NCBI RefSeq assembly: GCF_029227855.1
Contig: NZ_CP074356.1
Source of the DNA: Escherichia coli
GTDB lineage: Bacteria > Pseudomonadota > Gammaproteobacteria > Enterobacterales > Enterobacteriaceae
DNA length: 64,000 nucleotides
Strand: one strand, 5' to 3'
Position numbers and translations under genes: made by a program. The notes beneath the pieces were generated by a model that was not told the origin of the DNA, did not search any database, and worked only from the letters and a program-made list of their open reading frames with translations. Each line of letters opens with the position of its first letter. Position 1 is the stretch's first letter. Positions 8,110 to 43,361 of this stretch are shown in pieces.

Positions 8110-10350
8110 ATGAACAAGAAGATTCATTCCCTGGCCTTGTTGGTCAATCTGGGGATTTATGGGGTAGCACAGGCACAAGAGCCAACCGATACTCCTGTTT
8201 CACATGACGATACCATTGTCGTTACCGCCGCCGAGCAGAACTTGCAGGCACCTGGCGTTTCGACCATCACCGCAGATGAAATCCGCAAAAACCCGGTTGC
8301 CCGCGATGTGTCGGAGATCATCCGTACCATGCCAGGCGTTAACCTGACCGGTAACTCCACCAGTGGTCAGCGTGGGAATAACCGACAGATTGATATTCGC
8401 GGCATGGGTCCGGAAAACACGCTGATTTTGATTGACGGCAAGCCGGTAAGCAGCCGTAACTCGGTGCGTCAGGGCTGGCGTGGCGAGCGCGATACCCGTG
8501 GTGATACCTCCTGGGTGCCACCTGAAATGATTGAACGTATTGAAGTTCTGCGTGGTCCGGCAGCTGCGCGTTATGGCAACGGCGCGGCGGGCGGCGTGGT
8601 TAACATCATTACCAAAAAAGGCAGTGGTGAGTGGCACGGCTCGTGGGACGCATATTTCAATGCGCCAGAACATAAAGAGGAAGGTGCCACCAAACGCACT
8701 AACTTTAGCCTCACCGGTCCGCTGGGCGACGAATTCAGCTTCCGCTTGTATGGCAACCTCGACAAAACTCAGGCTGACGCGTGGGATATCAACCAGGGCC
8801 ATCAGTCCGCGCGTGCCGGAACGTATGCCACGACGTTACCAGCCGGGCGCGAAGGGGTGATCAATAAAGATATTAACGGCGTGGTGCGCTGGGACTTCGC
8901 ACCATTACAATCGCTGGAACTGGAAGCAGGTTACAGCCGCCAGGGTAACCTGTATGCGGGCGATACCCAGAACACCAACTCTGACTCCTATACCCGCTCG
9001 AAATATGGCGATGAAACCAACCGTCTGTATCGCCAGAACTACTCGCTGACCTGGAACGGCGGCTGGGATAACGGCGTGACCACCAGCAACTGGGTGCAGT
9101 ACGAACACACCCGTAACTCGCGTATTCCGGAAGGTCTGGCGGGCGGTACCGAAGGGAAATTTAACGAAAAAGCGACACAGGATTTCGTCGATATCGATCT
9201 CGATGACGTGATGCTGCACAGCGAAGTTAACCTGCCGATTGATTTCCTCGTTAACCAGACGCTGACGCTGGGTACGGAGTGGAATCAGCAGCGGATGAAG
9301 GACTTGAGTTCCAACACCCAGGCGCTCACCGGGACGAATACCGGCGGCGCTATTGATGGCGTGAGTGCCACCGACCGTAGCCCGTATTCAAAAGCAGAAA
9401 TTTTCTCGCTGTTTGCCGAAAACAATATGGAGCTGACTGACAGCACCATCGTAACGCCGGGGCTGCGTTTCGATCATCACAGCATTGTTGGCAATAACTG
9501 GAGTCCGGCTCTAAACATATCGCAAGGTTTAGGCGATGACTTCACGCTGAAAATGGGCATTGCCCGTGCTTATAAAGCGCCGAGTCTGTACCAGACTAAC
9601 CCAAACTACATTCTCTACAGTAAAGGTCAGGGCTGCTATGCCAGCGCGGGCGGCTGCTATCTGCAAGGTAATGATGACCTGAAAGCGGAAACCAGCATCA
9701 ACAAAGAGATTGGTCTGGAGTTCAAACGCGACGGCTGGCTGGCGGGTGTGACCTGGTTCCGTAACGATTATCGCAATAAGATTGAAGCGGGCTATGTGGC
9801 TGTAGGGCAAAACGCAGTCGGCACCGATCTCTATCAGTGGGATAACGTACCGAAAGCGGTGGTTGAAGGTCTGGAAGGATCGTTAAACGTACCGGTTAGC
9901 GAAACGGTGATGTGGACCAATAACATCACTTATATGCTGAAGAGTGAAAACAAAACCACGGGCGACCGTTTGTCGATCATCCCGGAGTATACGTTGAACT
10001 CAACGCTGAGCTGGCAGGCACGGGAAGATTTGTCGATGCAAACAACCTTCACCTGGTACGGCAAGCAGCAGCCGAAGAAGTACAACTATAAAGGTCAGCC
10101 AGCGGTTGGACCGGAAACCAAAGAAATCAGTCCGTACAGCATTGTGGGTCTGAGCGCGACCTGGGATGTGACGAAGAATGTCAGTCTGACCGGCGGCGTG
10201 GACAACCTGTTCGACAAACGTTTGTGGCGTGCAGGTAATGCCCAGACCACGGGCGATCTGGCAGGAGCCAACTATATCGCCGGTGCCGGGGCGTATACCT
10301 ATAACGAGCCGGGACGTACGTGGTATATGAGCATTAATACTCACTTCTGA
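8110..10350 (+). CDS. fepA: TonB-dependent ferric enterobactin outer-membrane receptor FepA
   Basis: 746-aa product MNKKIHSLALLVNLGIYGVAQA..., TonB box DTIVVTA, C-terminal ...YMSINTHF; the ORF-track start at 8050 is an upstream extension. Confidence 0.96.
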   Translation: MNKKIHSLALLVNLGIYGVAQAQEPTDTPVSHDDTIVVTAAEQNLQAPGVSTITADEIRKNPVARDVSEIIRTMPGVNLTGNSTSGQRGNNRQIDIRGMGPENTLILIDGKPVSSRNSVRQGWRGERDTRGDTSWVPPEMIERIEVLRGPAAARYGNGAAGGVVNIITKKGSGEWHGSWDAYFNAPEHKEEGATKRTNFSLTGPLGDEFSFRLYGNLDKTQADAWDINQGHQSARAGTYATTLPAGREGVINKDINGVVRWDFAPLQSLELEAGYSRQGNLYAGDTQNTNSDSYTRSKYGDETNRLYRQNYSLTWNGGWDNGVTTSNWVQYEHTRNSRIPEGLAGGTEGKFNEKATQDFVDIDLDDVMLHSEVNLPIDFLVNQTLTLGTEWNQQRMKDLSSNTQALTGTNTGGAIDGVSATDRSPYSKAEIFSLFAENNMELTDSTIVTPGLRFDHHSIVGNNWSPALNISQGLGDDFTLKMGIARAYKAPSLYQTNPNYILYSKGQGCYASAGGCYLQGNDDLKAETSINKEIGLEFKRDGWLAGVTWFRNDYRNKIEAGYVAVGQNAVGTDLYQWDNVPKAVVEGLEGSLNVPVSETVMWTNNITYMLKSENKTTGDRLSIIPEYTLNSTLSWQAREDLSMQTTFTWYGKQQPKKYNYKGQPAVGPETKEISPYSIVGLSATWDVTKNVSLTGGVDNLFDKRLWRAGNAQTTGDLAGANYIAGAGAYTYNEPGRTWYMSINTHF

Positions 10351-17109: not shown

Positions 17110-18486
17110 TTATTTCCGACGCAGCGTTTTAAATGCCACAAACAGGAATACAATCCACACCGGCAGCAGGATCGCTGACAAGCGCATATCATCCATCGTG
17201 CACATCAGCAGCAAAATCATGCCGAGGAAGGCAATACAAAGATAGTTGCCGAACGGATAAAGCAGCGCCTTAAACTGTGTTTCACGTCCCTGACGTCGCA
17301 TCGCCGCGCGAAAACGCAGATGCGCCAGGCAGATCATAATCCAGTTCAACAGCAGCGTTGCTACCACCAGCGCCATCAGCAGACCAAACGCTTTTTGCGG
17401 CAGCAGATAGTTGATTAACACCACCAGCGAAGTGATCGCTCCGGAAAGCATCAGCGAGTTAATCGGCACGCCGCGACGGCTGACGCGAGTCAAAAACTTC
17501 GGCGCATTACCCTGCACAGAAAGGCCAAACAGCATGCGGCTGTTAGAGTAAACCCCGCTGTTATACACCGACAACGATGCCACCAGAATGACGAAGTTCA
17601 GCGCAGAAGCCACTACGTTGCTGTCGAGATTATGGAAAATCATCACAAACGGGCTACTGTTAGATTTCACTTCCACCCACGGATAGAGTGCCAGTAAAAC
17701 CACCAGTGAACCGATGTAAAACAGCAGGATGCGATACACCACCTGATTCACTGCTTTAGGGATGCTTTTTTCCGGATCGCGCGCTTCAGCGGCAGTAATC
17801 CCAATCAGTTCCAGACCGCCGAAGGAGAACATAATCACCGCCAGCGATAAAATCAGCCCATTCCAGCCGGTGGCAAAGAAACCACCGTAGCGCCAGAGGT
17901 TGTCGATACTGGCTTTCTCGCCGCCGTGACCAGAAAACAGCAGCCACAGGCCAAAGCCGATCATGCCGATGATCGCCAGCACTTTAATCAGCGCAAACCA
18001 GAACTCGGTTTCGCCATATAAGCGCACGTTCACCAGGTTAACAGCGTTGATGATAATAAAGAAGGCGGCAGCCCAGATCCAGGTAGGAACATCCGGGAAC
18101 CAGTACTGCATATAAATGCCCGCAGCCGTTAGCTCTGCCATCCCCACCAGCACGAACATCACCCAGTAGTTCCAGCCAGAGAGGAAGCCCGCAAACGGTC
18201 CCCAGTATTTATAGGCAAAGTGGGCAAATGAACCGGATACCGGCTCTTCGACCACCATCTCGCCGAGCTGGCGCATAATCAGGAAAGCGATGATCCCGGC
18301 GACGCCGTAGCCCAGCAATACAGCCGGACCCGCCATCTGAATCGCCGGGCCAATGCCAAGAAACAGACCAGTACCAATTGCGCCACCCAGCGCAATCAGT
18401 TGAATATGACGGTTATGTAATCCGCGATGAAGCGTCGGCTCTTGATTCGACGCAGTATCTTCCGATACGGTTGACGCGTTTTTCAC
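17110..18486 (-). CDS. pheP: Phenylalanine-specific permease PheP (APC family)
   Basis: 458-aa product MKNASTVSEDTASNQEPTLHRGLHNRHIQLIALGGAIGTGLF... Confidence 0.95.
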   Translation of the reverse strand: MKNASTVSEDTASNQEPTLHRGLHNRHIQLIALGGAIGTGLFLGIGPAIQMAGPAVLLGYGVAGIIAFLIMRQLGEMVVEEPVSGSFAHFAYKYWGPFAGFLSGWNYWVMFVLVGMAELTAAGIYMQYWFPDVPTWIWAAAFFIIINAVNLVNVRLYGETEFWFALIKVLAIIGMIGFGLWLLFSGHGGEKASIDNLWRYGGFFATGWNGLILSLAVIMFSFGGLELIGITAAEARDPEKSIPKAVNQVVYRILLFYIGSLVVLLALYPWVEVKSNSSPFVMIFHNLDSNVVASALNFVILVASLSVYNSGVYSNSRMLFGLSVQGNAPKFLTRVSRRGVPINSLMLSGAITSLVVLINYLLPQKAFGLLMALVVATLLLNWIMICLAHLRFRAAMRRQGRETQFKALLYPFGNYLCIAFLGMILLLMCTMDDMRLSAILLPVWIVFLFVAFKTLRRK

Positions 18487-18587
18487 GCCTTTCCCCTGTG
18501 TGTCTTTTTTGTTGAGGGGCACCTTTTAACATTTAGTGCCCATCGTCGCAAGACACAATCCACACGGTTAAACGGGGTATCCTGCTT

Positions 18588-21500
18588 TTATTTCCGTACC
18601 CGATGTCGGTGCAGCCACATCAGCTTATACGCCGCCGGGATAATAAACAGCGACAGCAAAGGCGCGGTGATCATGCCGCCAATCATCGGTGCGGCAATCC
18701 GGCTCATCACCTCTGAACCAGCCCCCGTTCCCCACAGAATCGGCAGCAGACCGGCGATAATCACCGCCACCGTCATCGCTTTCGGGCGCACGCGCAGTAC
18801 CGCGCCGTGATACAACGCCTCATCCAGCTTCTGCTCACTGAATGTTTGCGGATTATTCAACGACGGCTCGGCCTCTATGGCGTGACGTAAATACATCAGC
18901 ATCACCACGCCAAATTCGGCGGCGACCCCGGCAAGGGCAATAAAGCCAGTACCCGTCGCCACGGAAAGATGAAAGCCCATCCACCACAGCAACCAGATGC
19001 CGCCCACCAGCGCAAACGGTACGCTGCTGATAATCAGCAACGCTTCGCCCACCCGACGGAATGCCAGATACAACAGCACGAAGATGATCATCAGTGTCAT
19101 CGGCACCATGAGTTTCAGCTTATGGTTGGCGCGCTCCAGTAGCTCGAACTGCCCGGAGAATGCCACGCTGGTGCCCGGTTTTAACTGCACTTTTTCATCT
19201 ATCGCTTTTTGCAAATCGTGAACCACCGACACCATGTCACGATCGCGGGCATCGATATAAATCCAGCTCGTCGGGCGCGCATTCTCGGTTTTCAGCATCG
19301 ACGGTCCGGTAGAGACTTTAATGTCGGCCACGTCTGCCAGGGTGATTTGCTGCTTCATCGGCGTCAGGATCGGCAACTGGCGCAGTGCCTGCGGACTATC
19401 GCGCCAGCTTTGCGGATAACGCAGATTAATTGGATAACGGGCAATCCCTTCCACCGTTTCGCCAACCATCGCCCCGCCCACCGCAGAAGTCACAAACAAC
19501 TGCACATCCGCCACCGTCATACCGTAACGCGCGGCTTTTTCACGGTTAATCTCAACGTTGATATAGCGCCCACCTTCCAGACGCTCGGCAAGCGCAGAAG
19601 CCACGCCTGGTACCGTTCGTGCCACCTCTTCAATTTGCTCCGCCATCGCGTCGATATCCGCCAGCACAGTGCCGGAAACTTTAATGCCGATGGGGCTTTT
19701 AATGCCAGTCGAGAGCATATCGATACGGTTACGAATTGGCGGCACCCACAGATTCGCCAGCCCCGGCAGCCGCACGGTGTTATCCAGTTCCTCAATGATT
19801 TTGTCCATCGTCATGCCAGGCCGCCACTGATCCTGCGGCTTAAGCTGGATGGTCGTTTCAACCATCTCGAGCGGAGCAGAATCGGTGGCGGTTTCCGCTT
19901 TCCCGGTTTTGCCAAATACCCGCGCCACTTCAGGTACGCTCATAATTAGCTTGTCGGTTTTTTGCAGCATACTCGCCGCCTCTGCTGCGGAAATCCCCGG
20001 CAGCGTCGATGGCATATACAACAAGTCGCCTTCATTGATCTGCGGTAAAAATTCCCCGCCAACTTTATTGAGCGGCCAGAGAACCGTCAGCACCGAAAGC
20101 GCTGCCACCAGCAGCGTGGTTTTTGGCCAGTGCAGTACTTTCAGCAACAGCGGATGATAAGCACGAATCAAAAAGCGATTGAGCGGGTTACTGCTTTCTG
20201 GCGGAATTTTGCCACGGATCCAGTAACCCATCAGGATAGGGATCACTATGATCGCCAGCAGCGCCGCACCCGCCATCGCATAAGTTTTGGTGAACGCCAG
20301 CGGGCCAAACAGACGCCCTTCCTGCCCTTCCAGGGTGAAGATCGGGATAAACGACAACGTGATAATCAGCAGACTGATAAACAGCGCCGGCCCCACTTCA
20401 ACAGACGCATCGGTGATCACCTGCCAGCGCGTTTTATTATCCAGCGTGGCGTCAGGATGCTGGTGCTGCCACTCTTCCAGTCGTTTATGCGCATTCTCGA
20501 TCATGACGATAGCGGCATCGACCATCGCCCCGACGGCAATCGCAATGCCGCCCAGCGACATAATATTGGCATTCAGCCCCTGGAAGTGCATGACAATAAA
20601 AGCAATACACAACCCCAGCGGCAACGAAATAATCGCCACCAGCGCCGAGCGCACATGCCAGAGAAACAGCGCACAGACTACCGCCACCACAATAAACTCT
20701 TCCAGCAACTTGCCGCTGAGGTTGTCGATGGCGCGGTCAATGAGCTGGCTGCGATCGTATGTTGTAACTATCTCCACGCCTTCCGGCAGACTGCTTTTCA
20801 GCGTTTCCAGTTTGTCTTTCACGGCGGCGATCACTTCTCGGGCGTTTTTGCCGGAGCGCAGGATCACCACCCCGCCCGCCACTTCGCCTTCGCCGTTCAG
20901 TTCGGCAATGCCCCGGCGCATCTCCGGGCCAATCTGGACCTTCGCAACATCGCGCAGATAAACGGGCACGCCATTTTCACTGGCTTTTAAAACGATGTGA
21001 TTAAAGTCGTCGAGCGTTTGCAGATAGCCGCTGGCGCGCACCATATATTCCGCTTCCGCCAGTTCGATCGACGAACCGCCCGCTTCCTGGTTTGAAGCAT
21101 CCAGCGCGCTTTTTACTTCGGCGAGACTGATGCCATATTGCGCCAGGCGCTGGGGATCGATAACCACCTGATACTCTTTCACCACACCGCCCACCGACGC
21201 CACTTCCGCAACGTCAGGGATGGTTTTTAGCTCATATTTGAGAAACCAGTCCTGCAATGAGCGTAAATCGGCCAGATCGTGCTTACCGCTGCGATCCACC
21301 AGTGCATATTCATAGATCCAGCCAACACCCGTGGCATCTGGCCCCAGCTCAGCGCTGACTCCCGCAGGCAGCTTACCCTGTACCTGGTTGAGGTACTCCA
21401 GCACCCGCGAGCGCGCCCAGTATGGATCGGTGCCATCTTCGAAAATGACATACACATAAGAGTCGCCAAACTGCGAGAAACCGCGCACAGTCTTCGCGCC

Positions 21501-35983: not shown

Positions 35984-36427
35984 ATGGAGTTTAGTATGAA
36001 AATCGAAGCTAATTCCCTTACTCATCCCTATGACTACAACGCCTCACTGAACAATTATTTACATTATTTTGAGAATTTCTCTCGTAATGACTGGAATAAA
36101 GATTCATGTGGAGGATATTTTACTTTTAGAGATGATGACAGAGAGTGTGTTTTGTTTTTTGTGAATTATGGTGATAATTTTTCATTGCGCTATGATTGTA
36201 CACAAAGTTCTGATGGAATAGTGTCATGCTGGTATAGTAACCATGAAGATGATAAAATGAATATCATCGTCGATGCTGATACAGAACAATTTATCCCTTT
36301 AGGTTCTTGCTTACCTCCTGATATTACTTTATCAGTAATAAAAGATTTTTTCAAAAATCCTTTAGAGAAATCAAAAAAAGTAAAATGGATGAATGCAGAT
36401 GACATTGACTGGTCATCTGTGTATTAA
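35984..36427 (+). CDS. Hypothetical protein, possible orphan immunity gene
   Basis: 147-aa ORF in AT-rich DNA downstream of the toxin/immunity pair; no recognisable motif. Confidence 0.4.
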   Translation: MEFSMKIEANSLTHPYDYNASLNNYLHYFENFSRNDWNKDSCGGYFTFRDDDRECVLFFVNYGDNFSLRYDCTQSSDGIVSCWYSNHEDDKMNIIVDADTEQFIPLGSCLPPDITLSVIKDFFKNPLEKSKKVKWMNADDIDWSSVY

Positions 36428-37318
36428 AGTTGGATTGGATAATTATCTGTTTCAAAAATCATTAAATTTAGAACCTATCTGTTCAACAGAGCTGCCTTGA
36501 ACAGCAGGTTCTTTTATGATGTCCAGGAGCGAATATGCCTGTGATGTCTGGCACTCAGCATCTGACTGACCTGGACTACTGATCCTACTCACACAGGGAG
36601 CTAGACCTGGAAGCAACCTACTGTAAGCAGTGCAGTAGCAGCCCACCTCACATCAGTCCTTGCAAGGTGTGGGCCTTTGTGATCTTGCTCTGTATTGCTG
36701 AGATCCTCAGGAAGGACTCGAAATTTAATCAGGAAGGCCGTTGCTAAAAATCAAAAAATAAATTCAAGAGCAATTTCTAAAACTTTTGAATCTACTGTAT
36801 CGGATGAGGTTTTCACTCCTTTCCAAAAGGTGAGTTTTCAAGCATTCAAGTTTCTGTTATGACCAAAACTTCACCATTTAACACTAATCCGAGTATTATG
36901 TTACCATGAAGAAAAAAGATATTAGATTTGCAATATCCATTAACTCCAACTCAAGTAAGATAGAATTAATGGAAAAATTAAAAACATAATCCCAGGGCTT
37001 ATTGAAATAACTCCCAGTGCATTAAGAGAAGAAAAAACATGGTAGTTATTGAAGATAATGATCTTTATGACTCTATAAAAGCAGAGGGAGTTGATGGATG
37101 GATGTATTATAAATTCATATTATCCATATTCCCATTAAAGGGAGTAGACACAACATTAGAATATCAACGGAAATTATCTTTTCTTTTCTTAAAGAAATTA
37201 AAAGATGCGGGTCTGTTAGGTGAACTTATATGCGAGGATGATTTTCATGACTGATGACCTCTACATATATCCTCAGTTCGTGGCTGGTATTACATGATCT
37301 GACAGGGAAAGATCGTAG

Positions 37319-37613
37319 CGAAATCAAAAAAGACGTGGATTTCCCGGAAGCCGGTGAAGACACGGCGCTCTGCGACAAGGAGACTAAACCGCCGAGGATA
37401 GCCCAGGGCAGCAGCAACGTTTTTATCAACAATCAGCCTGCCGCACGCCAGGGAGACAAACTGGAGTGCAGTGCGGCGATCGTGGAAGGTTCGCCGGACG
37501 TCTTTATTGGGGGTGAGCAGGTCACCTATCTGGATATCCAGCCGGAGTTCCCGCCGTGGCAGAGAATGATCCTGGGGGGAATAACGATAGCCAGCTATCT
37601 TCTGCCGCCAGCG
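37319..37613 (+). pseudogene. Duplicated fragment of the Rhs PAAR-domain region
   Basis: 295 bp nearly identical to 30867-31161 of the full-length rhs gene; encodes EIKKDVDFPEAGEDTALCDK...ITIASYLLPPA inside ORF 37254..37631; lacks the N-terminus and core. Confidence 0.85.
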
Positions 37614-37750
37614 CAGGGAAAGATCACGTAACGCTGCTTTTTTGTACTAAATAATTCGCACTAAATGTTCAATAATTGAGATATTCCTTATTACCTAAAT
37701 ACAGTTCCACCAAGATTACCTAAACCCAAATGAGGTAAAAGATAGTGGGT

Positions 37751-38112
37751 ATGAATAAAAATGAAATCCATTTCCCTATAGGATATGGTTGGTTGAATGA
37801 AAAAAAATTATTGGCACCAGTGAATTTAGCCAATTAGAACCATGGTTTTATCTAGATGAGAACAGGTGTTTTTTTGCGAATAAAAAATGGCCAAATGTCA
37901 TAGGTGAACAATTATTCGCTTTTGCTAAACGTCAAGATAATGATGAATTGGCTTGTTTCAAAATTAATGAATCTGGAGTCTGTGAGGGTGTTTATTTAAT
38001 TAATGGGTGGACTCCTAACGGGTTTGATATTATACAATTTTACCCTGATTTTTGGGAATGGGTACATTTGGTTATACAAGATGTCTCGGAGTGGATTGAT
38101 AATAAAGGATAA
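37751..38112 (+). pseudogene. Frameshifted small gene (immunity-protein-like) with an A8 tract at the frame switch
   Basis: ATG at 37751 reads 27 codons to a stop; a shifted frame from about 37813 continues for 99 codons to TAA at 38110-38112; the shift coincides with gaaaaaaaatt at 37798-37808. Confidence 0.45.
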
Positions 38113-38141
38113 TTTGAAACAAAAGTAAAAAACCGCCTTCA

Positions 38142-38840
38142 TTGAAGGTAACGTGGAGTGGTGGGCGGAGCAGCCTGCCCGCAGACACAGACTACCCGGA
38201 CCCGCGCGGGGAGCGGGACGCGGAAGCCGACCCCGGCCTGCTGTATGCAGGACAGTGGCAGGATGCGGAATCCGGACTGTGCTATAACCGGTTCCGGTAT
38301 TACGAGCCGGAAACCGGGATGTACCTGGTGAGTGATCCCCTGGGGTTGCTGGGGGGTGAGCAGACTTACCGGTATGTGCCTAATCCTAGTGGGTATGTTG
38401 ATCCTCTGGGATTAGCAACGTGTCCTATACTCAGACAGTGGGCGCTGACTAACCTTGAAGCCAGTCGGGCAGCAAGGGCTGCATCTAATTTTGGTAAGCC
38501 TCTGGTCCAGCGAAATAAAACGATTGGCGATAAAGTAAGGGATATGATTGCCAAAGAGAGGGGAACCACTCTAATTGAACAAAATTATAGAGTGACAGGA
38601 GGATTAAAGCGTATTGACGTTGTTGATGGAGTAACGGGTATAGAATCTAAAGTCGATCGAACAGGGTTAACAACCCGAGTACGGCAAGAGGTAGCGCGGG
38701 ATATTAAGATTTTGAGAAGTGAGCAACTTGATCAAATTGAATGGGTGTTTACAAGAAGTTCAACTACAGGGAAGATTGGGCCAACTAAACCACTTGAAGA
38801 TCTTTTAAATAAACATGGTATACCGATTATTTATCGATAA
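38142..38840 (+). CDS. Orphan Rhs C-terminal fragment: core end (DPxGL) plus alternative C-terminal toxin domain, candidate PD-(D/E)xK nuclease
   Basis: 38171-38498 nearly identical to 34311-34638 of the full rhs; the C-terminal domain diverges after ...AASNFGK; contains RIDVVDG...GIESK; the ORF begins at TTG and has no PAAR or core of its own. Confidence 0.7.
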   Translation: MKVTWSGGRSSLPADTDYPDPRGERDAEADPGLLYAGQWQDAESGLCYNRFRYYEPETGMYLVSDPLGLLGGEQTYRYVPNPSGYVDPLGLATCPILRQWALTNLEASRAARAASNFGKPLVQRNKTIGDKVRDMIAKERGTTLIEQNYRVTGGLKRIDVVDGVTGIESKVDRTGLTTRVRQEVARDIKILRSEQLDQIEWVFTRSSTTGKIGPTKPLEDLLNKHGIPIIYR

Positions 38841-38851
38841 GGAGTGATAGT

Positions 38852-39409
38852 GTGAAACTCAAACCGATTGGTGACTTTTTAAACAAAAATGGGTTTATAA
38901 AAAATGGTAACAATGATTTTTATAAAGTTCATGATAAGTTTGTAAATTGTATAAATTTTCAAAAAAAGAGTACAGGTGATATTTTTTTTATAAACACAGG
39001 TGTTCATCCTGTGTTCGAAAATTTTTGCAATGAACCACCGAAAAAAGAAATAGATTGTTACATCCGTAACCGTGTGTGTGATGGACTAAGTATATCTTTG
39101 CTGCATTCTTTTGAAGGTAGTGAGTTTGTTATCAGTGAGATAAAAAACAAAGCGTTTTGTTTTTTTGAATACTTTGATTCATTGAATAAAATATTCGATG
39201 CTATTCGTGTTGTAGATATTGAAGAGAGAAATATTTGCGATGAGCTAAGTGGTGTAAGCAGCGTAAGATTAGCTTTGATGTGTATGAACTACCAGTATGA
39301 GAAAAAAAAATTTAGCCTTGTTTCTGATTTTGCGAACTATGGTCTTGCTATATCTAGAGGCCCGGTACCGAAAAAAGCATTTAAGGATATGATAAAAATA
39401 ACAGAGTGA
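38852..39409 (+). CDS. Putative immunity protein for the orphan Rhs C-terminal toxin
   Basis: 185-aa AT-rich ORF with GTG start 11 bp after the orphan toxin stop and GGAG upstream. Confidence 0.6.
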   Translation: MKLKPIGDFLNKNGFIKNGNNDFYKVHDKFVNCINFQKKSTGDIFFINTGVHPVFENFCNEPPKKEIDCYIRNRVCDGLSISLLHSFEGSEFVISEIKNKAFCFFEYFDSLNKIFDAIRVVDIEERNICDELSGVSSVRLALMCMNYQYEKKKFSLVSDFANYGLAISRGPVPKKAFKDMIKITE

Positions 39410-39434
39410 TACCTAATCCGGTGTAATACTTGCT

Positions 39435-39646
39435 GCCTGTGTACCGCGAAGATTAACGGCCGGGAGGAAACTATTCTCTACAACCGGGACGCCACAGGCC
39501 GCCTGGCAGAAGTCATCACGCCGGAAGGCAAAACGCAGTATGCGTATGACAAATCCGGCAGGCTGACGGGTATCTTCAGCCCGGACGACACATCACAGCG
39601 CACCGGCTATGAAGAACGCGGGCGGGTGAATGTCACCACTCAGGGC
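39435..39646 (+). pseudogene. Internal Rhs core fragment
   Basis: About 210 bp at roughly 90% identity to 33018-33228 of the full-length rhs; truncated at both ends, abutting the ISAs1 left end. Confidence 0.8.
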
Positions 39647-40936
39647 AGGGAAAGATCATCCAAAGTACACTTTTTGTACTAAATAATTCGCATTTTATGT
39701 TTAAAAATGGAGATATTCCTCATTACCTAAAGCTGTTTTTTATTGCTTATACATGATCAAATACTCCTTACATAATTAAGGAGAACAAAATGGAACTTAA
39801 AAAATTGATGGAACATATTTCTATTATCCCCGATTACAGACAAGCCTGGAAAGTGGAACATAAATTATCGGATATTCTGCTGTTGACTATTTGTGCCGTT
39901 ATTTCGGGTGCAGAAGGCTGGGAAGATATAGAGGATTTTGGGGAAACACATCTCGATTTTTTGAAGCAATATGGTGATTTTGATAATGGTATTCCTGTTC
40001 ACGATACCATCGCCAGAGTTATATCCTGTATCAGTCCTTCAAAATTTCACGAGTGTTTTATTAACTGGATGCGAGATTGCCATACTTCAGATGATAAAGA
40101 CGTCATCGCAATTGATGGAAAAACACTCCGGCATTCTTATGACAAGAGTCGCCGCAAGGGAGCGATTCATGTCATTAGTGCGTTCTCAACAATGCACAGT
40201 CTGGTCATCGGACAGATCAGGACGGATGAGAAATCCAATGAAATTACAGCTATCCCTGAACTTCTTAACATGCTGGATATTAAAGGAAAAATCATCACAA
40301 CTGATGCGATGGGTTGCCAGAAAGATATTGCAGAGAAGATACAAAAACAGGGCGGTGATTATTTATTCGCTGTAAAAGGAAACCAGGGGCGGCTAAATAA
40401 AGCCTTCGAGGAAAAATTTCCGCTGAAAGAATTAAATAATCCAGAGCATGACAGTTACGCCATTAGTGAAAAGAGTCACGGCAGAGAAGAAATCCGTCTT
40501 CATATTGTTTGCGATGTCCCTGATGAACTTATTGATTTCACGTTTGAATGGAAAGGACTGAAGAAATTATGCGTGGCAGTCTCTTTTCGGTCAATAATAG
40601 CAGAACAAAAGAAAGAGCCAGAAATGACGGTCAGATATTATATCAGTTCTGCTGATTTAACCGCAGAGAAGTTCGCCACAGCAATCCGAAACCACTGGCG
40701 CGTGGAGAATAAGCTGCACTGGCGTCTGGACGTGGTAATGAATGAAGACGACTGCAAAATAAGAAGAGGAAACGCCGCAGAATTATTTTCAGGGATACGG
40801 CACATCGCTATTAATATTTTAACGAATGATAAGGTATTCAAGGCAGGGTTAAGACGTAAGATGCGAAAAGCAGCCATGGACAGAAACTATCTCGCGTCAG
40901 TCCTTGCGGGGAGCGGGCTTTCGTAATCTTGCCCTG
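39646..40936 (+). mobile_element. ISAs1-family insertion sequence (H-repeat element), about 1.29 kb
   Basis: Imperfect terminal inverted repeats CAGGGAAAGATCA (39646-39658) and TAATCTTGCCCTG (40924-40936); single transposase ORF; inserted in rhs-derived sequence. Confidence 0.75.
39790..40926 (+). CDS. ISAs1-family transposase (H-repeat-associated protein, YhhI/YdcC-like)
   Basis: 378-aa [55 protein letters not shown]...; the stop codon lies inside the right inverted repeat. Confidence 0.88.
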
Positions 40937-41123
40937 CGTTAACCGCCCCTCCTTGACACCACGCTTTTGTCTACATTCTACACAAACGGCAACTTTTATA
41001 ACCAGTGTAAAAATAACGTGCCGCAATAGTCATACCTATTAATGGTAAAAAGCTGTCACAATTCATAAAAAACCTTAATATACGCCACCCTAAACATAAC
41101 CAGCGTTAATGTAAGGTTTTTGT

Positions 41124-43361
41124 GTGGACTGGCTTCTTGATGTTTTTGCTACCTGGCTCTACGGCTTAAAAGTAATCGCGATAACGTTAGCGGTCATCAT
41201 GTTCATCAGCGGGCTGGACGATTTTTTTATTGATGTCGTCTACTGGGTACGCCGCATTAAACGCAAGTTGAGTGTTTATCGCCGCTACCCGCGAATGAGT
41301 TACCGCGAACTGTATAAACCAGATGAAAAACCGTTAGCGATTATGGTTCCGGCGTGGAATGAAACGGGCGTCATCGGCAATATGGCCGAGCTGGCGGCGA
41401 CCACGCTCGACTATGAAAACTATCATATCTTTGTTGGCACCTACCCCAACGACCCCGATACACAGCGTGATGTTGACGAAGTGTGCGCTCGCTTCCCGAA
41501 CGTGCATAAGGTAGTCTGCGCGCGTCCTGGCCCCACCAGCAAAGCCGACTGCCTGAACAACGTGCTGGACGCCATCACCCAGTTTGAGCGTAGCGCCAAT
41601 TTCGCTTTTGCTGGTTTTATTCTGCATGACGCCGAAGACGTAATTTCACCGATGGAATTGCGTCTGTTCAACTATCTGGTCGAGCGTAAAGATCTGATTC
41701 AGATCCCGGTGTATCCGTTCGAACGCGAATGGACGCACTTCACCAGCATGACTTACATTGATGAGTTTTCAGAACTGCATGGCAAAGATGTTCCGGTGCG
41801 TGAAGCCCTCGCCGGACAAGTGCCCAGCGCAGGCGTCGGTACCTGTTTCAGCCGCCGCGCCGTGACCGCACTGTTAGCTGACGGTGACGGTATTGCTTTC
41901 GACGTGCAGAGTCTTACTGAAGATTACGACATTGGTTTCCGCCTGAAAGAAAAAGGTATGACGGAAATTTTTGTCCGTTTTCCGGTGGTGGACGAAGCCA
42001 AAGAACGCGAGCAGCGTAAATTTTTACAGCACGCGCGGACGTCAAACATGATCTGCGTGCGCGAATATTTCCCTGATACCTTTTCGACTGCGGTTCGACA
42101 AAAATCTCGCTGGATCATCGGCATTGTTTTCCAGGGCTTTAAAACCCACAAATGGACCTCCAGCCTGACGCTGAACTACTTTCTCTGGCGCGACCGCAAA
42201 GGGGCAATCAGTAACTTTGTCAGCTTTCTCGCGATGCTGGTGATGATCCAGCTTCTGCTGTTACTGGCGTATGAAAGTTTGTGGCCCGATGCCTGGCATT
42301 TCCTTTCTATTTTCAGCGGCAGCGCATGGTTAATGACCCTGCTGTGGCTAAACTTTGGTTTGATGGTTAACCGCATCGTGCAGCGGGTGATTTTTGTCAC
42401 TGGCTACTACGGTCTGACGCAGGGGCTGCTATCTGTCCTGCGTCTTTTCTGGGGCAACCTGATTAACTTCATGGCCAACTGGCGCGCGTTAAAACAGGTA
42501 CTTCAACACGGCGATCCACGTCGTGTCGCGTGGGATAAAACAACGCATGACTTCCCCAGCGTGACTGGCGATACCCGCTCGTTGCGCCCGTTAGGCCAAA
42601 TTCTGCTGGAAAATCAGGTCATCACTGAAGAACAACTCGATACAGCACTGCGTAATCGCGTCGAAGGTCTACGCCTGGGCGGTTCAATGCTGATGCAGGG
42701 GCTGATTAGCGCCGAACAGCTGGCACAGGCGCTGGCAGAGCAAAACGGCGTGGCGTGGGAATCCATCGACGCCTGGCAGATCCCGTCCTCGCTGATTGCC
42801 GAAATGCCGGCCTCCGTGGCGCTGCATTATGCAGTGCTGCCGCTGCGTCTGGAAAATGATGAGTTAATTGTCGGCAGTGAAGATGGTATTGACCCGGTTT
42901 CGCTGGCGGCCCTGACGCGTAAAGTCGGACGCAAAGTGCGTTACGTCATTGTTCTGCGGGGACAAATTGTCACGGGGTTACGCCACTGGTATGCGCGCCG
43001 ACGCGGTCACGATCCGCGGGCAATGTTGTACAATGCGGTTCAGCATCAGTGGCTCACGGAACAGCAGGCCGGTGAAATCTGGCGGCAATATGTGCCGCAT
43101 CAGTTCCTGTTCGCCGAAATACTGACCACGCTCGGTCATATTAATCGTTCAGCAATTAACGTGTTGTTATTGCGCCATGAACGCAGTTCTCTGCCGCTCG
43201 GCAAGTTTTTGGTCACCGAAGGCGTTATCAGCCAGGAAACGTTGGATCGCGTCCTGACAATTCAACGCGAATTACAAGTTTCGATGCAATCACTATTACT
43301 CAAAGCAGGTTTAAATACAGAACAGGTTGCGCAACTGGAGTCCGAAAATGAAGGAGAATAA
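41124..43361 (+). CDS. nfrB: NfrB, phage N4 adsorption protein B (family-2 glycosyltransferase with C-terminal c-di-GMP-binding domain)
   Basis: 745-aa product MDWLLDVFATWLYGLKVIAITLAVIMF...; GTG start. Confidence 0.93.
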   Translation: MDWLLDVFATWLYGLKVIAITLAVIMFISGLDDFFIDVVYWVRRIKRKLSVYRRYPRMSYRELYKPDEKPLAIMVPAWNETGVIGNMAELAATTLDYENYHIFVGTYPNDPDTQRDVDEVCARFPNVHKVVCARPGPTSKADCLNNVLDAITQFERSANFAFAGFILHDAEDVISPMELRLFNYLVERKDLIQIPVYPFEREWTHFTSMTYIDEFSELHGKDVPVREALAGQVPSAGVGTCFSRRAVTALLADGDGIAFDVQSLTEDYDIGFRLKEKGMTEIFVRFPVVDEAKEREQRKFLQHARTSNMICVREYFPDTFSTAVRQKSRWIIGIVFQGFKTHKWTSSLTLNYFLWRDRKGAISNFVSFLAMLVMIQLLLLLAYESLWPDAWHFLSIFSGSAWLMTLLWLNFGLMVNRIVQRVIFVTGYYGLTQGLLSVLRLFWGNLINFMANWRALKQVLQHGDPRRVAWDKTTHDFPSVTGDTRSLRPLGQILLENQVITEEQLDTALRNRVEGLRLGGSMLMQGLISAEQLAQALAEQNGVAWESIDAWQIPSSLIAEMPASVALHYAVLPLRLENDELIVGSEDGIDPVSLAALTRKVGRKVRYVIVLRGQIVTGLRHWYARRRGHDPRAMLYNAVQHQWLTEQQAGEIWRQYVPHQFLFAEILTTLGHINRSAINVLLLRHERSSLPLGKFLVTEGVISQETLDRVLTIQRELQVSMQSLLLKAGLNTEQVAQLESENEGE

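Follow-up and report, generated by a model that had tools for sequence, protein, structure and literature searches.

An apparently coding-competent H-repeat (ISEc1) of the ISAs1 family at the nfrB-proximal end of an Escherichia coli Rhs island

The H-repeat and its relatives

The H-repeat (H-rpt) of Escherichia coli has reportedly been described since the early 1990s, in Rhs papers from the Hill laboratory. Copies are carried by RhsB (yhhI), RhsE (ydcC) and RhsC (ybfD/ybfL), and the Rhs locus between nfrB and cusS was tabulated by Jackson et al. in 2009 as locus 4 (PMC2935791); transposition of an H-rpt has reportedly never been observed (PMC3032704). Relatives of the ISAs1 family are found on plasmids, among them ISAs1 (the Aeromonas salmonicida type element), ISAeme2, ISPa60 and ISKpn31, which like the H-rpt have a single DDE transposase of PF13808 plus PF01609 architecture, conserved D, D and E residues, a length of 1.2-1.3 kb and a reading frame that runs almost to the right end. 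Descriptions of the ISAs1 family recovered by our literature searches were passing mentions only.

The element analysed here lies in a 64,000-nt stretch of E. coli DNA, referred to as the window. With the Rhs-borne copies named above it shares the terminal bases, the length of 1,291 bp, the 378-aa reading frame and the distal position within an Rhs element, oriented like rhs; as in the yhhI, ydcC and RhsC copies, the stop codon falls within the right repeat and a target duplication is missing. Over exactly 39646-40936, its DNA is 96.4-97.8% identical to the yhhI and ydcC copies, both of which are 1,291 bp long. It departs from the K-12 copies by a DNA difference of ~2-4% and by its residence at Rhs locus 4 (cusS/nfrB), a locus absent from K-12, and from the usual locus-4 H-rpt in that its clade lacks 71 bp normally following the right end. 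The distance to the plasmid relatives is far greater: the H-rpt protein is only 32-49% identical to theirs, and ISAs1, ISAeme2, ISPa60 and an Aeromonas media element (the ends of ISKpn31 being left out of this comparison) have repeats of 17-22 bp as opposed to 13 bp, stop codons situated 19-28 bp from the terminus and just outside the repeat as opposed to inside it, and perfect 10-bp target duplications where the H-rpt has none. The terminal CAGGG of the H-rpt is common to all four, with the single exception of the right end of ISPa60 (CAAGG).

It is very probable that the feature represents a complete, apparently coding-competent H-repeat (ISEc1), that is, a DDE insertion sequence of the ISAs1 family, at the nfrB-proximal end of a vgrG-rhs toxin island at Rhs locus 4. 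The H-rpt/ISEc1 assignment draws on near-identity to yhhI/ydcC in sequence, length and ends, together with the Rhs association. Membership in the ISAs1 family, already proposed in the preliminary description, was borne out by a match to the full NF033564 profile above its cut-off, by the PF13808/PF01609 two-domain architecture with its triad, and by the build of 1,291 bp with a single reading frame and short repeats. The name ISEc1 rests on the RefSeq product names of 97-98% identical proteins ("ISAs1-like element ISEc1 family transposase"); the exact protein of the window is labelled "ISAs1 family transposase" only, and the gene names yhhI and ydcC are attached to relatives. The element is thus the long-known H-repeat/ISEc1 in a catalogued Rhs locus, already known and routinely annotated by RefSeq. 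Of 5,426 complete E. coli genomes, 5,342 contain an H-rpt match, with a median of 5 places each; the places number roughly 25,000 in all, and 28 places are plasmid-borne.

Ends and coding capacity of the element

The element is made up of the following parts.

39646..40936, + strand: H-repeat (H-rpt) / ISEc1-type insertion sequence of the ISAs1 family, complete, 1,291 bp, with ends common to six copies
39646..39658, + strand: left terminal inverted repeat CAGGGAAAGATCA, read from the sequence; 5 pattern matches in the window
39748..39776, + strand: sigma-70-like site TATACA-17-CATAAT, putative transposase promoter predicted by consensus scan
39790..40926, + strand: transposase reading frame, 378 aa, ATG start, intact; candidate catalytic residues D109, D172 and E306
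40924..40936, + strand: right terminal inverted repeat TAATCTTGCCCTG, opening with the TAA stop of the transposase

Delimitation relied on the comparison of independent copies, obtained by megablast of the element with 600-bp flanks against 5,426 complete E. coli genomes. Copies at other loci align to query positions 601-1891, which correspond exactly to 39646-40936. The six copies compared in full (window, EC1, EC21Z-083, K-12-type yhhI in RhsB, ydcC and BL21 RhsC) have unrelated flanks, yet all six are identical in their first and last bases and are 1,290-1,291 bp long, the five others starting with CAGGGAAAGATCA and ending with TAATCTT(G/T)CCCTG. The reverse complement of TAATCTTGCCCTG is CAGGGCAAGATTA, which matches the left end CAGGGAAAGATCA at 11 of 13 bases, and the terminal pattern CAGGGMAAGATYA occurs 5 times in the window with one mismatch at most, against 0.23 occurrences expected. 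Given the agreement of six differently flanked copies and the enrichment of CAGGGMAAGATYA, the ends are not a product of chance. That inverted repeat and reading frame might be a fortuitous arrangement, or the element wrongly delimited, could be argued from the shortness of the repeat, 13 bp with two mismatches; the reading has practically no probability and is ruled out by the boundaries shared among independent copies, the recurrence of the CAGGG terminus across the ISAs1 family and the transposase profile match (E-value 5e-125), the frequency of CAGGGMAAGATYA likewise speaking against it. The bounds of 39646-40936 and the imperfect inverted repeat in the preliminary description were, accordingly, right.

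The transposase gene is the sole long reading frame of the element and fills 88% of its 1,291 bp. Upstream of it, an AAGGAG Shine-Dalgarno sequence at 39778-39783 follows the putative promoter; sites of this promoter-like kind occurred 4 times across the region in the consensus scan, with 3.7 expected. Sequence and list of reading frames agree with the preliminary description of a 378-aa frame ending at 40926, which leaves 10 bp to the terminus, and of a stop codon inside the right inverted repeat: TAA at 40924-40926 forms the innermost three bases (positions 11-13) of the repeat at 40924-40936. Because all six ISEc1/H-rpt copies examined have this layout and the stops of the plasmid relatives lie outside the repeat, the stop inside the repeat is a trait of the ISEc1 lineage, in which a short repeat is combined with a slightly longer reading frame, and is not peculiar to the window copy. 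In the ISAs1 family generally, the reading frame extends nearly as far as the right end.

The encoded protein matches the NCBIfam equivalog NF033564 ("ISAs1 family transposase") with 416.8 bits against a cut-off of 70 (E-value 5e-125), residues 29-344 covering profile positions 1-314 of 314, and its Pfam architecture consists of PF13808 DDE_Tnp_1_assoc (E = 1.4e-33) and PF01609 DDE_Tnp_1 (E = 1.3e-30). The catalytic triad D109/D172/E306 appears intact, as judged from the invariance of the three residues in a six-protein family alignment of the window protein with ISKpn31, ISAs1, ISPa60, ISKpn9 and the Aeromonas media element (32-49% identity). All six H-rpt copies encode 378 aa, and the window transposase is 97.4-98.7% identical to the other five (97.6% to YhhI and 98.7% to YdcC). 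The truncation relative to reference copies that the preliminary description had envisaged as a possible objection is therefore absent, the protein having the length of YhhI and YdcC and covering the whole NF033564 profile. Differences among the reading frames of the six copies (window 39790-40926; L003 392-1528; L005 2645-3781; L006 1648-2784; L007 1645-2781; L008 1644-2780) are mostly synonymous, with pairwise dN/dS of 0.04-0.10 at dS of 0.06-0.14, and indicate long-term, strong purifying selection on the H-rpt transposase gene. This selection is observed despite six copies without target duplications and the reported absence of observed transposition.

Flanks, end relics and the history of the locus

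Strain 7/2 shares 99.8% identity with the window over 36000-41500; its genes are arranged in the order cusC, cusRS, vgrG, a DcrB-related gene, rhs, an immunity gene and then orphan modules; the orphan rhs tips and immunity genes are followed by the H-rpt and then by nfrB, nfrA and ybcH. K-12 is without the island, the end of cusS and nfrB being separated by 149 bp. In four contexts (locus 4, RhsB, RhsC and the ydcC site), the H-rpt is placed next to a conserved core gene, on the distal side and in rhs orientation. The immediate surroundings of the window copy are these.

39435..39645, + strand: left flank, an internal Rhs core fragment that repeats a portion of the main rhs gene and is cut off precisely at the IS terminus
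40937..40982, + strand: island-specific spacer of 46 bp, without counterpart in K-12 and separated from the IS end by a further 71 bp in most genomes
40983..41123, + strand: nfrB upstream region in common with K-12, comprising the last 141 bp of the 149-bp cusS-nfrB spacer there
41124..43361, + strand: nfrB, intact, 745 aa, GTG start, a c-di-GMP-activated glycosyltransferase needed for phage N4 infection (PMC8669469)

The left flank is 94% identical to positions 9371-9582 of strain 7/2 L001, within the main rhs gene there, and the intact rhs core continues ...ACTCAGGGCCGACGG at the point where the left flank of the window stops at the IS terminus. It differs in every strain examined; the right junction is constant. 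Immediately upstream of the core fragment abutting the IS, the window has at 38142-39409 an orphan rhs C-terminal tip (232-aa reading frame with a DPLGL motif) followed by a DUF4304 protein (185 aa), the two being taken to be a toxin/immunity pair.

Target-site duplications, proposed earlier as a check, were found neither at the window copy, where the left flank reads ...CACCACTCAGGG and the right flank CGTTAACCGCCC..., nor at the other five copies with offsets checked by eye (0 of 6 in all); perfect 10-bp duplications surround four of four plasmid ISAs1 relatives. We read the missing 10-bp duplication as the result of later flank rearrangement, not as evidence against ISAs1 membership. An 800-bp query of the joined flanks had its two halves contiguous in 0 of 5,097 genomes, hence no pre-insertion site in the collection.

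On the right, K-12 homology starts at 40983, with 99.6% identity over 40983-41500. Of the 5,426 complete genomes, 2,480 (~46%) have an H-rpt right end adjoining the nfrB upstream region; since nearly half of the complete E. coli genomes have it, the arrangement is an ordinary one and not peculiar to what the preliminary description called a strain carrying this island. Among 14 such rows in a spread sample of the genome search, 13 carry an additional 66-73 bp after the H-rpt right end, in the common form CCTGCTCACC...CACTATGA between the terminus and CGTTAACC. O157:H7 and O104:H4 are examples of strains with the 71 bp. The window clade, which numbers no more than 196 genomes, 168 of which reach ≥99% identity, and is exemplified by ST2747 and strain 7/2, is without these 71 bp, the loss starting at the IS terminus with a junction ambiguity of 1 nt (compared with loci L002, L005, L015 and L016). 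By its position the loss looks like an IS-adjacent deletion, and it could also be an ordinary deletion that by chance ends at the IS boundary. In E. coli EC1 (L003, 1539-4000), 2.46 kb of other genes are interposed between a full H-rpt and the nfrB flank; the stretch ends with ...ATGATCTCCCCTG, in appearance a degenerate H-rpt terminus fused to the 71-bp segment, and the junction suggests repeated H-rpt turnover beside the nfrB flank.

Three relics of H-rpt ends are situated among the orphan rhs modules.

36647..36692, + strand: relic of a diverged H-rpt right end, 46 bp, 78% identical
37303..37315, + strand: lone 13-mer resembling the left repeat, CAGGGAAAGATCG, with an rhs N-terminal fragment immediately after it
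37614..37704, + strand: relic of a second H-rpt left end, ydcC-like subtype, ~91 bp, directly after the rhs N-terminal fragment 37316-37613

The rhs N-terminal fragment at 37316-37613 is thus bracketed by two left-end sequences in direct orientation, and the main rhs gene has no left-repeat-like 13-mer at the place that corresponds to 37303-37315. A tblastn search found no transposase fragment behind the left-end relic at 37614, so that the ~91 bp of non-coding left end alone survive there. Several breakpoints fall precisely on H-rpt termini: one follows position 36692, one precedes 37303, and others are at 37613/37614, 39645/39646 and 40936/40937. Two rhs core fragments likewise stop precisely where an H-rpt left end begins. 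Breakpoints at termini rather than at internal positions are the pattern expected from transposase-mediated events, which we regard as a low-probability lead.

The H-rpt is a compact unit with a leader of its own (promoter-like site and Shine-Dalgarno sequence), one transposase gene and a stop that doubles as the inner three bases of the right repeat, a layout common to the six ISEc1 copies examined. The window copy is not a simple fresh insertion, seeing that it has no 10-bp duplication, that its left end sits on a truncated rhs core fragment and that its right end adjoins DNA that has lost, from the terminus onwards, 71 bp found in most other genomes. We infer that the Rhs locus has long housed this copy and passed it on vertically, and that deletions at the IS ends, together with the exchange of orphan toxin/immunity modules upstream of it, would have reshaped its flanks.

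The terminus-precise breakpoints, the end relics dispersed over 36.6-37.7 kb, the purifying selection and the absence of target duplications, taken together, raise the rather unlikely prospect that the H-rpt transposase is still active in cis and possibly serves as the dedicated agent of orphan-module shuffling in Rhs and of adjacent deletion, instead of being an inert relic. A rival version, which we judge distinctly improbable, denies that the H-rpt is, or still is, a selfish IS and sees in it a host-retained part of Rhs loci, whose transposase would be selected for cutting at the termini and so shuffling rhs core fragments and orphan toxin/immunity modules. The low dN/dS over a dS of 0.06-0.14 among copies from different loci and strains fits this version, as does the triad that is intact by alignment, but purifying selection is equally expected where only functional IS copies propagate. 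No target duplication was found at any of the six copies, while relatives have them; later recombination between copies can have the same outcome, and the comparison took in only six copies. The version is further favoured by the RhsB, RhsC, ydcC-site and locus-4 copies all being distal to, and adjoining, a core gene, by the several window breakpoints exactly at H-rpt termini and by the report that transposition has never been seen (PMC3032704). It is opposed by the plasmid-borne copies (28 places), which fit ordinary mobility or hitch-hiking.

The H-repeat as upstream neighbour of nfrB

Activation of adjacent genes by outward or hybrid promoters is a general phenomenon among insertion sequences (review: PMC9330008). 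The window IS resembles such gene-activating elements in being co-directional with, and close to, a low-expressed downstream gene: the GTG of nfrB at 41124 is 187 bp past the IS end at 40936 on the same strand, just as the preliminary description had it, and RefSeq places the start identically in strain 7/2 and K-12. Expression of nfrBA-ybcH in K-12 is low, follows exponential growth and depends on FliA (PMC8669469). Unlike gene-activating elements, the window IS has no outward -35 or full promoter detected at its right end, and the native upstream region of nfrB is retained.

The promoter and terminator searches were consensus scans of a crude kind, in which sigma-28 and hybrid promoters are poorly covered. 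They returned no + strand sigma-70-like site at or beyond the IS right end (~40900-41124) and no + strand terminator-like site between 39776 and 41124. A perfect TTGACA is present at 40953-40958 in the island-specific spacer, with a best -10 partner of only 3/6 in a relaxed scan, and the sigma-28 (FliA) consensus scan upstream of nfrB gave 10/16 at best, no convincing site. The RNA fold of 40890-41130 has a z-score of -2.5. A predicted GC-rich pairing GGGGAGCGG / CCGCCCCUCC at 40906-40952, found only in the 71-bp-deleted form, spans the junction of IS and flank; we do not class it as a terminator, there being no U-tract directly after it. The Rfam scan of 39000-41600 yielded only a sub-threshold chance match to BsrF (21 bits versus 50 needed).

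In four examined strains with the H-rpt upstream, an internal stop or frameshift makes nfrB a pseudogene according to RefSeq, at these positions.

L001 (strain 7/2) 17479-19716, L005 4050-6292, L015 from 2054 and L016 from 2061: nfrB pseudogenes

The window nfrB is intact at 745 aa; that of strain 7/2, 99.8% identical, is one of these pseudogenes. Loss of nfrB, a gene of a phage-receptor pathway, may be recurrent.

Whether the IS acts as a regulatory insertion, with an outward or hybrid promoter or read-through that materially alters nfrBA-ybcH expression and with it N4-type phage sensitivity and motility, must be weighed on this evidence, and we hold it to be very unlikely. The suggestion in the preliminary description that transcription out of the IS could influence nfrB is unsupported here. 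The IS is co-directional with nfrB and ends 187 bp away, and with no + strand terminator predicted between 39776 and 41124, read-through from the transposase gene into nfrB is possible; small inputs could matter for an operon whose expression is normally low (PMC8669469), and the spacer does contain the perfect TTGACA. Against this, zero sigma-70-like sites passed the scan at or beyond the right end, the TTGACA is without an acceptable -10 partner, Rho-dependent termination is possible in the untranslated gap of 187 nt, and the K-12-type upstream region of nfrB is whole from 40983. With 141 of the 149 bp of the K-12 spacer kept, the native control region of nfrB is probably intact. The nfrB pseudogenes in four strains with the same IS do not suggest selection for IS-driven expression. 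An effect of the IS on nfrB is thus weakly grounded and most likely small, its sole plausible input being weak transposase-gene read-through. The corresponding co-directional neighbour in K-12, from which read-through into nfrB could come, is cusS.

As a discovery the element matters little, the H-repeat being long described and its locus catalogued (PMC2935791). The practical value lies in annotation, in that the ends, the intact reading frame, the missing target duplication and the clade-specific 71-bp deletion have been pinned down. Lastly, nfrBA-ybcH makes the glycan receptor pathway for phage N4, and ~46% of complete E. coli genomes have the H-rpt upstream of nfrB, which K-12 does not. 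The three layouts upstream of nfrB, namely that of K-12, that with the additional 71 bp and that with the direct junction, constitute a common polymorphism with a conceivable effect on phage sensitivity.
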